In this document: piece by piece, positions 53,086-54,060 of the stretch
Layout: each line of letters begins with the position of its first letter
How positions within the stretch are numbered: the stretch's first letter is position 1
Source of the DNA: a virus
Lineage: Duplodnaviria > Heunggongvirae > Uroviricota > Caudoviricetes
Length of the DNA: 64,000 bases
IMG/VR virus record: IMGVR_UViG_2778261574_000002
Reading direction: 5' to 3' (one strand)
Program-made: the position numbers and the translations under genes
The notes under the pieces: generated by a model
Told to the model about the DNA's origin: nothing
The model's input: the letters and a program-made list of their open reading frames with translations, nothing else
The model's database searches: none

Positions 53086-54060
53086 TTATCCGTTACCGCA
53101 CGACGGTTTCTGCGTGATAAACGTTTCAAGCATCTTTTCCGCGATTGCCGACCAGGTGTGACACTGGACCTTTTCAGCATTTTTCAGGCGATCAACGCGA
53201 GCAATCACCTCATCCCAATCAATCCGCGACTTGATAACCATATGGTTCACCAAAGCCAGGCGATCTGGCGGAAGGCAATCGGACGGCGTTAATATCAACG
53301 CCCCACACATTGCCGCCTCAAGAACAGTTAATCCAAGGCTTTCGGGATGCGTAACGATAAAAACGTCACTCTTACGCAATTCAGCTGCAAATTCGGTTGC
53401 TGGTACCGGCGTCCGTCTGTATGGAGTTACCGAAATATTCCCCGGATCAATGGTAACCAATCCGTCATCGGTCAACGTTCTGGCCTCATACGGAACAGTC
53501 AGACGCTGAAGGTTCATAAGGATACTTAAGGAGTGATCAAACCCACTAACATCAAATGCAGCGTGGTCTACAAAAATACGCAGAACATCGTCTGTTTTGG
53601 TTTCCAGATGGAACAGCTCCTGATTCGCTGCCCATCCAACATGTTTGTTAAAGCGATTATGACGCTCTAACCTGCCGGGATTATCCAGGTACCGCCAGGT
53701 ATCATCGCGGACAGTAAAAGTAATATCAACTGGTGCCGAATCCAGCATAGAACCGTCGTATACCTGAGCTACCCATCCAGTGAATCGACGACGCAGTTGC
53801 ACGCCTATTTCCCTGGGCACCGTAGTAAAATACCGCAATCCTGGCGCTAAAATGGCTTTCGCAGAACACGAGAGCGCAGCGGTCAACACAGCTTCAACAT
53901 AATCCTCCGGGCTTTCGACGCCGGGAGAATATGGACGATGGTATTGCAATGTTACCCCAGCCTCACTAAAGGCGCAGGCCAGGTTGTAAGCCCACATTTC
54001 CGTATATGTTTTCACATCACTGATAGCTTCAAATTTTCGCCCAATGATCAGGATGTTCAT
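53086..54060 (-). CDS. GT-B fold glycosyltransferase-like protein
   Basis: N-terminal MNILIIG; C-terminal FIVTHPESLGLTVLEAAMCGALILTP resembles the GT4 donor-binding motif. Confidence 0.5.
   Translation of the reverse strand: MNILIIGRKFEAISDVKTYTEMWAYNLACAFSEAGVTLQYHRPYSPGVESPEDYVEAVLTAALSCSAKAILAPGLRYFTTVPREIGVQLRRRFTGWVAQVYDGSMLDSAPVDITFTVRDDTWRYLDNPGRLERHNRFNKHVGWAANQELFHLETKTDDVLRIFVDHAAFDVSGFDHSLSILMNLQRLTVPYEARTLTDDGLVTIDPGNISVTPYRRTPVPATEFAAELRKSDVFIVTHPESLGLTVLEAAMCGALILTPSDCLPPDRLALVNHMVIKSRIDWDEVIARVDRLKNAEKVQCHTWSAIAEKMLETFITQKPSCGNG

Follow-up and report, generated by a model that had tools for sequence, protein, structure and literature searches.

What does dbn, the glycosyltransferase-like gene at the end of the ban transcription unit of P1-like phages, contribute to the phage, and to which acceptor might its product transfer a sugar? 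Our initial annotation of the window (the whole stretch of viral DNA analyzed, 64,000 nucleotides) proposed that the gene encodes a GT-B-type enzyme and that, together with a DUF115 pair and a possible GT-A-like gene, it gives the phage a glycosylation capacity. The 2004 P1 genome paper reportedly annotated dbn as a possible glycosyltransferase. For dbn itself the idea is not new, since GenBank records already say as much ('possible glycosyltransferase' for P1 Dbn, P1_gp078, YP_006544; 'putative glycosyltransferase, Dbn' for RCS47; the P7 gene is named glt). Literature searches on dbn, pmgO, pmgP and pmgQ returned nothing beyond essentiality tables and one RNA-seq mention, and a search on phage DUF115 glycosyltransferases found nothing. 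What is new here is the comparative result: a Dbn clade, its linkage to PmgQ-like and DUF115-like genes, and a gene fusion.

dbn and the end of the ban unit

The region around dbn contains the following features:

54359–55729, minus strand: ban (DnaB-like helicase; DnaB_C 1.1e-107, DnaB 4.7e-35), upstream gene of the transcription unit
54057–54362, minus strand: 101-aa ORF between ban and dbn (PHROG 12809)
54066–54071, minus strand: Shine-Dalgarno sequence AAGGAG, 5 nt ahead of the dbn ATG, read directly from the sequence
53086–54060, minus strand: dbn, 324 aa, ATG start, predicted GT-B, GT4-like glycosyltransferase
53039–53067, no strand assigned: hairpin, probable bidirectional intrinsic terminator common to the convergent dbn and gene 5 transcripts
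48289–53040, plus strand: baseplate/tail genes 26-25-7-24-6-5, flanked by the pmgL-pmgQ operon and dbn (context only)

The 324-aa reading frame is present as annotated, and its product matches PHROG 2518 over its full length (E 3.9e-231). Amino-acid identity is 96-98% to the Dbn proteins of P1 and RCS47 (96% to that of P1) and 95% to the truncated Glt of P7, and the synteny is the same in all three phages, with dbn lying between ban and gene 5. Against these relatives the dN/dS of dbn is 0.10-0.14, and the gene is under purifying selection. The 90% cluster of Dbn holds approximately 2,400 member sequences with an intact gene, while the deposited P7 gene carries a premature stop (TGG to TGA at W23, numbered from MNILIIG). 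Nine residues are invariant across Dbn homologues down to 26% identity. Taken with the high identity and the low dN/dS, this conservation in distant homologues places the reading frame, as judged from sequence comparison, far beyond chance.

The start of dbn differs from that annotated in P1. Here the protein begins MNILIIG, 8 codons past the P1 start, and the ATG that the P1 annotation gives to dbn is used by the 101-aa ORF, which separates dbn from ban and whose stop overlaps the dbn start codon (ATGA). This ORF is absent from P1, P7 and RCS47. It gave 28 tblastn matches among the collected loci, many of them duplicates, which we estimate to represent about 15 distinct P1-like IMG/VR contigs, and nothing that we found ties it to the glycosylation genes.

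The P1 annotation places a C1-controlled promoter, Pban, and two predicted internal promoters, P1dbn and P2dbn, in this unit. Gene 5 (52408–53040, plus strand), a baseplate gene whose product matches Phage_base_V, converges on dbn, and the hairpin lies between the two genes. It consists of a 12-bp stem (AAAAGCCCG-ATCGC-CGGGCUUUU) and folds as RNA with a dG of -18.9 kcal/mol (z -3.3); a scan for consensus terminators did not list it, and RNA folding was needed to show it. Because an A-tract lies on one flank and a U-tract on the other, the hairpin could terminate transcription in both directions. The stretch from ban to dbn, in which the genes are closely coupled or overlap, showed no terminator-like site, and therefore dbn, with the hairpin at its 3′ side, ends the ban unit. 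The initial annotation was right on this point, and also in placing dbn downstream of ban and in recognizing a bidirectional terminator; it erred in setting dbn behind that terminator, which lies 3′ of the gene.

A GT-B fold with a conserved EX7E motif

Structure prediction bears out the glycosyltransferase fold: the Dbn model (pLDDT 94.8) has two Rossmann-like beta/alpha/beta domains separated by an interdomain cleft, as in GT-B enzymes. The donor-binding peptide singled out by the initial annotation, THPESLGLTVLEAAMCGALILTP, corresponds to residues 237-259 (encoded at 53284–53352) and contains the following motif:

53317–53343, minus strand: EX7E donor-site motif E240-x7-E248 (E240-SLGLTVL-E248) within THPESLGLTVLEAAMCGA, in the C-terminal donor domain

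Among 66 homologues, E240 is invariant and E248 is kept in at least 90%. In a profile search, sequence alignment with solved GT4 structures (8xsg, MshA 3c4q, PimA 2gej) was confined to the EX7E stretch of Dbn. A single-sequence search of PDB sequences with Dbn gave noise only (an affibody, a ribosomal protein). The GT4-like assignment stands on the presence and conservation of this motif but falls short in Pfam, where the Glycos_transf_1 model (PF00534) scores 24.5 bits against a curated cut-off of 26.4 and covers residues 221-307 only. Models of the N-terminal GT4 domain do not match Dbn, NCBIfam gives only a partial match of 15.7 bits, and precomputed Pfam assignments place PF00534 on a minority of 73 Dbn homologues (6 rows).

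Compared with retaining GT4 enzymes (PimA, BshA, GlgM, sucrose-phosphate synthase, WaaG), Dbn is only 8-15% identical, is compact at 324 aa, and has invariant residues of its own (D102, W143-A144, D175, T237-H238); in profile search its small clade stays apart from the bulk of GT4. The best viral structural match is the Tupanvirus glycosyltransferase A0A6N1NPH0 (TM 0.80/0.82, E 2.3e-18), which is of similar length (315 aa) but only 18% identical and belongs to a eukaryotic virus, its function there being predicted too. Dbn has no transmembrane-like segment (maximum Kyte-Doolittle 19-residue mean 1.55) and is acidic (pI 5.6, net charge -7.7), with a pI below 7 in 83% of the family. We read Dbn as a putatively active GT-B glycosyltransferase, soluble in the cytoplasm and probably of the retaining GT4 type, the stereochemistry and the use of a nucleotide-sugar donor being suggested by the EX7E motif and the nearest structural neighbors.

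Partner genes and the distribution of the cassette

Three further genes of the window, all in the pmg operon, are the candidate partners of dbn:

44599–45294, minus strand: pmgQ, modelled GT-A, GT8-like glycosyltransferase; constant dbn partner in other phages
45965–46591, minus strand: pmgP, DUF115/MptE-like, second of the pair (Pfam MptE-like 0.00033, sub-threshold)
46489–47151, minus strand: pmgO, DUF115/MptE-like (Pfam MptE-like 4.9e-05, sub-threshold; PHROG 4603 at 5.4e-74)

On the basis of its model, PmgQ would be a GT8-like GT-A enzyme. The RefSeq label of pmgO is 'alpha-2,3-sialyltransferase'. On PF01973, PmgO and PmgP score 23.6 and 20.9 bits against a cut-off of 34.6 bits; as a benchmark, bona fide E. 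coli WaaZ itself reaches only 29.6 bits, and the DUF115-like bacterial neighbors of Dbn homologues reach 28-34. The DUF115 superfamily includes the ulosonic-acid transferases Maf and WaaZ. A direct sequence relationship between PmgO and WaaZ was rejected (BLASTP E 6.2), leaving only the shared sub-threshold MptE-like signal, and the resemblance of the set to the E. coli LPS core enzymes (WaaG/WaaB of GT4, WaaO/WaaJ of GT8, the KdoIII transferase WaaZ) is at the level of class only, with no significant pairwise similarity. None of the partner genes has a Pfam match to membrane-protein or flippase families. In the P1 annotation a late promoter, LPpmgL, lies upstream of the pmg operon, and the pmgN-pmgQ and ban units carry C1 operators and are C1-repressed in lysogens. 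CRISPRi and deletion screens found dbn, pmgO, pmgP and pmgQ to be non-essential (PMC10695390).

A search of 1.84 billion proteins placed 418 representatives in the Dbn clade (E<=1e-3). Because only 4 Dbn loci were found in the contigs of 185,579 species genomes, the family appears to be mostly phage-borne, and by these searches the clade looks small, discrete and almost confined to phages. A first scan of viral contigs returned near-identical P1-like contigs only, and a profile built from distant members reached other lineages. Within the fetched flanks, a PmgQ-like gene accompanies dbn at 13 of 13 non-P1 phage loci, and also at locus L178; DUF115-like genes lie near dbn at six loci (L010, L101, L102, L145, L158, L175). 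Two unrelated phages, L010 (P2-like) and L175, have all four genes contiguous, and in L010 a PmgP homologue (52% identical) lies directly upstream of dbn. PmgO-like and Dbn sequences are fused in one protein, P0149 (E 1.3e-35 for DUF115 and 1.7e-94 for Dbn), whose N-terminal half is 28% identical to the pmgO product (E 5e-25). Among P1-like loci with enough flanking sequence, pmgO, pmgP and pmgQ are kept with dbn in 58 of 60. The cassette recurs in P1-like, P2-like, siphovirus-like, myovirus-like and jumbo phages. The link that the initial annotation drew to the DUF115 pair and the GT-A-like gene is thus upheld, as all three kinds of gene accompany dbn in unrelated phages, and dbn, pmgQ, pmgO and pmgP appear to form a single functional module.

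In several lineages the cassette is placed among structural genes. It follows terminase and portal in L010, on the same strand and with overlapping gene boundaries; it lies between the head-tail adaptor and the tape-measure/distal-tail genes in L100, flanked by the sheath and tube genes of the tail in L145 and L158, and ahead of head-completion and tail-completion genes in L178. Linkage of glycosyltransferase genes to structural genes is therefore found in four lineages (L010, L100, L145/L158, L178), and in P1 the cassette genes lie on both sides of genes 26-5. FkbM-type methyltransferases, which are typical sugar O-methylases, stand beside the cassette in L145, L176 and L178.

Candidate acceptors of the cassette

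We tentatively favor, at somewhat less than even probability, the explanation that Dbn is a glycosyltransferase acting in a four-enzyme glycan-building module with PmgQ and the DUF115 pair PmgO/PmgP, and that virion proteins are its likeliest acceptor. In P1 the module would be split into two C1-controlled transcription units around the baseplate/tail block. During lytic growth it would draw on host nucleotide sugars, with UDP-hexoses as the putative donors of Dbn and PmgQ and CMP-Kdo as a possible donor of PmgO/PmgP, and assemble a short oligosaccharide on one or more proteins of the tail, the baseplate or the head-tail region. Plaques would form in the laboratory even if this coat were missing. 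We infer the order in which the enzymes act only indirectly, and the acceptor least securely of all: virion proteins are our best guess, with host envelope glycans as the main rival. P1 probably glycosylates something and possibly its own particle. The broader form of the proposal, that in P1 and many unrelated tailed phages the cassette adds a short glycan, perhaps O-methylated and with Kdo in it, to proteins of the tail, the baseplate or the head-tail region, is doubtful.

A close precedent is virion glycosylation in mycobacteriophages, where, according to the part of PMC12619734 that covers Freeman et al. 2023, phage glycosyltransferase sets are dispensable for growth and the glycans sit on capsid and tail-tube subunits. 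The present set is likewise dispensable and in four lineages is found among structural genes. Unlike the mycobacteriophage systems, its hosts, where known, are Gram-negative, its families are GT4-like, GT8-like and DUF115, and it is known from genes alone. Several points count against the favored explanation. Morons with no connection to the virion are also typically placed within structural modules; the C1 operators on both P1 units mark them as early rather than purely late genes; the Pfam GT1 match of Dbn is sub-threshold; and in a group of jumbo phages the cassette adjoins RecA-, UvsY- and helicase-like genes instead of structural genes. Glycans on P1 particles are mentioned neither in the virion proteome paper nor in the 2026 capsid cryo-EM paper, neither of which sought them.

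The P1 receptor is the LPS core. It is possible, though unlikely, that the acceptors of the cassette are lipid-linked glycans (LPS core under synthesis, or an O-unit or ECA on Und-PP) on the cytoplasmic side of the inner membrane, and that the enzymes alter or mask the LPS-core glucose that P1 recognizes and so limit superinfection or the loss of progeny on debris. This possibility draws on the three bacterial Dbn homologues, all of which lie in ABC-transporter surface-polysaccharide clusters and therefore make a lipid-linked glycan the more likely ancestral acceptor. The Brucella pseudogrignonensis cluster contains Wzz, Wzm, Wzt, two GT4 genes, a DUF115 gene and the Dbn homologue, while locus L174 combines an ABC transporter, a KpsF-like SIS/CBS gene, DUF115, the Dbn homologue and KdsA-like and KdsB-like genes of Kdo synthesis. 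The DUF115 protein of L174 has a faint, tentative 'WaaZ_KDO_III' label. PmgQ-like genes, however, are absent from the bacterial clusters, the phage cassette has no membrane, flippase or ligase partners, and Dbn has no transmembrane segment. LPS already in the outer membrane would be out of reach of cytoplasmic enzymes within one lytic cycle, and repeated insertion within late structural operons is unusual for conversion genes. C1 repression of the pmgN-pmgQ and ban units in lysogens argues against lysogenic conversion, which we ranked lower as the main reading on account of the C1 operators and the missing membrane partners; Dbn and its partners do not correspond to the serotype-converting Gtr set of GtrA flippase, GtrB bactoprenol glucosyltransferase and serotype-specific Gtr.

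Quite unlikely is a module whose target is an RNA, a small molecule or a protein of the host, modified for instance in host takeover or counter-defense. Dispensability on laboratory K-12 is what one would expect of counter-defense or niche functions, and in L010 the variable region, of P2 type, that holds the cassette also encodes a 1354-aa KAP NTPase next to it. On the other side, a set of four transferases that work together, frequently accompanied by a sugar methyltransferase, looks more suited to building an oligosaccharide than to attaching one inactivating sugar, and no conserved candidate target gene lies beside the cassette. A defense-system assignment was likewise set aside, as PADLOC returned no family match at E<=0.01 for Dbn, PmgO, PmgP, PmgQ or the 101-aa ORF.

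Hypermodification of phage DNA, in which Dbn and its partners would add sugars to a modified base, is very unlikely. The models would be glucosyl-hmC in T4 and the decoration of 5hmC with hexose, heptose or Kdo by C5-methyltransferase/TET/glycosyltransferase clusters; phage gene clusters placing Kdo and heptose on 5hmC do exist (bioRxiv 10.1101/2023.12.21.572611). The jumbo-phage cassette, which adjoins a cytidylyltransferase-like/cupin gene and a methyltransferase as well as the RecA- and helicase-like genes, fits this possibility, as does the C5-cytosine methyltransferase domain of P1 Dmt. In contrast to the T4 AGT/BGT enzymes and the C5-MT/5mYOX/GT clusters (Pyle et al.), no enzyme forming a hydroxymethylated pyrimidine was found beside the cassette: a hydroxymethylase or TET/JBP-type dioxygenase was absent from the scanned window ORFs (44.6-47.9, 52.4-56.9 and 58.9-63.6 kb), from the precomputed Pfam domains of the P2-like, siphovirus-like and myovirus-like loci, and from a Pfam scan of ten L145 proteins. 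The methyltransferases beside the cassette are of FkbM or class-I small-molecule types rather than DNA methyltransferases, and the acidity of Dbn, by a crude whole-protein test, is the opposite of the positively charged groove of DNA GT-B enzymes.

It is scarcely credible that dbn is a relic, in decay or coding for a dead enzyme, that rides along as the last gene of the ban operon: its non-essentiality, the P7 stop and the sub-threshold Pfam match would agree with decay, but the low dN/dS, the approximately 2,400 intact cluster members, the nine invariant residues including E240, and a gene partnership conserved across phage lineages all speak against it.

The proposed four-enzyme module would gather four genes of a model phage, so far without a known function or credited only putatively with a role in morphogenesis, under a single testable hypothesis. 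If the acceptor is LPS, the cassette would give the phage a novel means of modifying the receptor that it uses itself. If it is the virion, glycosylation of phage particles would extend to coliphages, which would matter for how antibodies recognize the particles, for their stability and for work with P1-based vectors. We know of no virion glycosylation outside actinobacteriophages, and the cassette would, if the proposal is true, be the first; virion glycosylation would then have been overlooked in one of the most-used model phages.

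The dbn gene and its surroundings

The window is a P1-like phage-plasmid (Punavirus). P1, P7, RCS47 and SJ46 are among the 18 phage records to which the 1.5 kb around dbn aligns at 95-99% identity. The 324-aa reading frame proposed in the initial annotation is present, as judged from ORF calling and its match to P1 Dbn, and its product shares 96% amino-acid identity with P1 Dbn, 98% with the RCS47 counterpart and 95% with the truncated Glt of P7. Both the gene and the idea of a glycosyltransferase are already in databases, with entries reading "function unknown, possible glycosyltransferase" (P1), "glt, putative glycosyltransferase" (P7) and "glycosyltransferase family 4 protein" (RCS47 RefSeq). 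The gene comes after ban, a DnaB-like helicase gene, and converges on the baseplate gene 5.

53086-54060, minus strand: dbn, ORF of 324 aa
54057-54362, minus strand: 101-aa ORF between ban and dbn in the window, absent from P1, P7 and RCS47
53039-53067, between dbn and gene 5: hairpin with a 12-bp G+C-rich stem flanked by an A-tract and a U-tract, one at either end (dG -18.9 kcal/mol, z -3.3)

From its predicted folding, the hairpin is a plausible bidirectional terminator. The initial annotation had placed dbn downstream of ban behind such an element; the gene order holds, but the hairpin lies 3′ of dbn rather than between ban and dbn.

P1, P7 and RCS47 have a ban stop codon that overlaps the annotated ATG of dbn. 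The 101-aa ORF begins at the ATG annotated as the dbn start in P1, and its stop overlaps (ATGA) the ATG of MNILIIG, which in the window has its own Shine-Dalgarno sequence (a preceding AAGGAG). Because all distant homologues in the alignment start at the MNILIIG equivalent (M-K-I-L-L-L), the P1 annotation (MQWNEEKP- start; NC_005856, 5163-5186) is probably eight codons too long. The 101-aa ORF corresponds to PHROG 12809, where no function is assigned; its 28 tblastn matches among fetched loci are inflated by contigs fetched twice or more, and we estimate about 15 distinct P1-like IMG/VR contigs. In the deposited P7 sequence (NC_050152, 3188-4186, minus strand), a TGG to TGA change at the W23 codon, numbered from MNILIIG, explains why the annotated glt product has only 287 aa; the change may have arisen in a laboratory strain or reflect natural decay.

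Other parts of the window also carry distinctive features. Upstream of ban (56009-58208), an SPFH/Band-7 lipoprotein gene (56112-56939, minus strand) stands in place of P1 tciA/B/C, with five tRNA genes (Met-CAT, Ser-TGA, Thr-TGT, Tyr-GTA, Arg-TCT) versus three in P1. The 754-aa Dmt (58885-61149, minus strand) has a C5-cytosine DNA methylase domain at its N-terminus and a Dam-type N6-adenine methylase domain at its C-terminus, and is followed by an RdgC-like gene (61146-62165). Two lambdoid-type Ead/Ea22-like genes (39753-41047, minus strand) lie in the pmg/pap region of the P1-like backbone, and megablast of 38000-48300 matches hundreds of Stx-converting and lambdoid phages.

Fold and family of Dbn

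Sequence evidence taken by itself points only weakly to a glycosyltransferase. Pfam Glycos_transf_1 scores 24.5 bits against Dbn, under the 26.4-bit cut-off, and covers residues 221-307 only; NCBIfam gave nothing useful, and a single-sequence search of PDB sequences gave only noise. A homologue search returned 73 proteins, and an alignment of 66 of these shows no variation at D102, W143, A144, D175, F234, T237, H238, E240 and S241, with E248 conserved in at least 90%. E240-x7-E248 forms EX7E, the signature of retaining GT4 enzymes, and it is through this stretch only that the family profile matches the solved GT4 structures 8xsg, MshA and PimA.

Comparison of Dbn with other enzymes (approximately 270-280 of 324 Dbn residues aligned)
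Sucrose-phosphate synthase: 19.2
BshA: 19.1
GlgM: 18.7
PimA: 18.5
PimB′: 18.5
WaaB: 16.0
T4 alpha-glucosyltransferase: 15.6
WaaG: 15.0

Among viral proteins, the closest structure is that of a glycosyltransferase from Tupanvirus (TM 0.80). The initial annotation was to fall if structure prediction showed no glycosyltransferase fold; the model does show one, and it upholds the assignment to GT-B. The case for formal membership in GT4 is partial, as fold and EX7E motif fit but the curated Pfam threshold is not reached. The dN/dS of dbn (0.10-0.14) indicates purifying selection, and the protein has no membrane segment.

Searching 1.84 billion cluster representatives with a family profile gave only 418 Dbn-family proteins at E<=1e-3, of which 194 reach E<=1e-30, so by profile the family is a small, uncharacterised GT4-like clade separate from the main body of GT4. 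The majority of members are on phage-like metagenomic contigs; among 185,579 species (one genome per species) there are four loci, namely one E. coli P1 plasmid, two Brucella pseudogrignonensis loci and one 209-bp fragment. Some members are 520-630 aa long with additional parts (P0217, P0223, P0226, P0235, P0239, P0241, P0198, P0201, P0186), several having a common, unassigned C-terminal domain of ~200 aa. The C-terminus looks like a SAM-methyltransferase in P0201 and has an alpha/beta-hydrolase-like GFSMG region in P0198; in P0186 the Dbn domain is duplicated in tandem.

A proposed glycosyltransferase module in unrelated phages

We compared ORFs around non-P1 Dbn-family members with the window, then used HMMs for sensitivity; approximately 17 non-P1 loci were covered out of 418 representatives, with gene calls in metagenomic loci partly from crude ORF calling. 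A homologue of PmgQ (44599-45294, minus strand; a modelled GT8-like GT-A enzyme) lies within the fetched flanks in 13 of 13 non-P1 phage loci, usually directly downstream of the Dbn homologue. Homologues of pmgO (46489-47151) and pmgP (45965-46591), both sub-threshold MptE-like/DUF115, accompany Dbn in L010, L101, L102, L145, L158 and L175; the RefSeq name of PmgO is "alpha-2,3-sialyltransferase". In the P2-like phage L010, terminase, portal, PmgO, PmgP, Dbn and PmgQ follow on one strand with overlapping gene boundaries, while L175 has the order Dbn, DUF115, DUF115, PmgQ. Locus L178 encodes a 522-aa fusion (P0149, 4304-5872) of a PmgO-like part (residues 20-215, E 1.3e-35; 28% identity to PmgO, E 5e-25) and Dbn (residues 219-521, E 1.7e-94), and a PmgQ-like gene is present there too. 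Among P1-like elements, pmgO, pmgP and pmgQ are kept with dbn in 58 of 60 loci having enough flank. Dbn is a constant partner of a GT8-like enzyme and a frequent partner of DUF115 enzymes, including one fusion. Synteny and gene fusion make the earlier proposal, that dbn, the DUF115 pair and the GT-A-like gene form one glycosylation capacity, well supported.

L101 and L102 (IMG/VR 2887663082, 2906128962) are diverged P1-like elements (Dbn 57-59% identity), with pmgO, pmgP and pmgQ adjacent without intervening ppp. There dbn is preceded not by ban but by two unassigned genes (~227-268 aa and 167 aa; PHROGs 8514 and 15291).

Position of the cassette in phage loci
L010: continues the terminase-portal operon
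L100 (siphovirus-like): Dbn and PmgQ, with the head-tail adaptor on one side and tape-measure and distal-tail genes on the other
L145/L158 (myovirus, Mu-type baseplate): DUF115, GT8-like, Dbn, PmgQ-like and FkbM methyltransferase between tail sheath and tail tube
L178: fusion gene, PmgQ-like gene and FkbM methyltransferase just ahead of head-completion and tail-completion genes
P1 and window: pmgL-pmgQ (minus) and dbn (minus) flank baseplate/tail genes 26-25-7-24-6-5 (plus)

According to the P1 annotation, the interval between pmgL and gene 26 holds the late promoters LP26 and LPpmgL, pmgN-pmgQ is preceded by a C1 operator (Oppp) and promoter PpmgN, and the ban unit is under C1 control. A group of large aquatic phages (L004, L008, L097-L099, L176) carries the cassette without DUF115, next to RecA-, UvsY- and helicase-like genes; its partners are a cytidylyltransferase-like/cupin protein, polysaccharide pyruvyl transferase, GT8-like and GT47-like enzymes and methyltransferases.

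Candidate acceptors

Dbn, PmgQ, PmgO and PmgP would assemble an oligosaccharide from host nucleotide sugars. Virion proteins rank first of four candidate acceptors, because the cassette is repeatedly found within morphogenesis modules of unrelated phages, sugar methyltransferases accompany it and the enzymes are predicted to be soluble; position in a structural module is circumstantial evidence on this point. The paper on the P1 virion proteome does not name Dbn, PmgO, PmgP or PmgQ in its text, and no glycan has been reported on P1 particles in studies that did not look for glycans. In P1, dbn is transcribed during P1vir infection (bioRxiv 10.64898/2025.12.28.696737), and surveys by CRISPRi and deletion (PMC10695390) found none of the four genes necessary for plaque formation.

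Host lipid-linked envelope glycans rank second, favored by the bacterial Dbn homologues and by a similarity, at the level of enzyme class, to WaaG/WaaB, WaaO/WaaJ and WaaZ of the LPS core. Three bacterial loci (L094/L095 of Brucella pseudogrignonensis, and L174) are ABC-transporter polysaccharide clusters in which the Dbn homologue adjoins a DUF115 gene. In L174 there are, in addition, KpsF-, KdsA- and KdsB-like genes for Kdo synthesis, a gene content that suggests a Kdo-containing polymer. WaaZ is the E. coli KdoIII transferase. It is itself a sub-threshold MptE-like protein, which fits the prediction that the DUF115 partners transfer ulosonic acids; pairwise comparison of PmgO and WaaZ detected no similarity. 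Another host target ranks third. DNA comes last: phage gene clusters placing Kdo or heptose on 5hmC exist (bioRxiv 10.1101/2023.12.21.572611), but Dbn is acidic (pI 5.6, a crude argument) and no hm-pyrimidine pathway was seen in neighbor loci or the window parts scanned (44.6-47.9, 52.4-56.9 and 58.9-63.6 kb).

In the literature searched, we found no description of the four-gene module, the PmgO-like/Dbn fusion or the link to structural modules. These are the new part, dbn itself being a known P1 gene. The four genes fit the known class of phage glycosyltransferase cassettes, and the module is directly testable in a tractable model phage.
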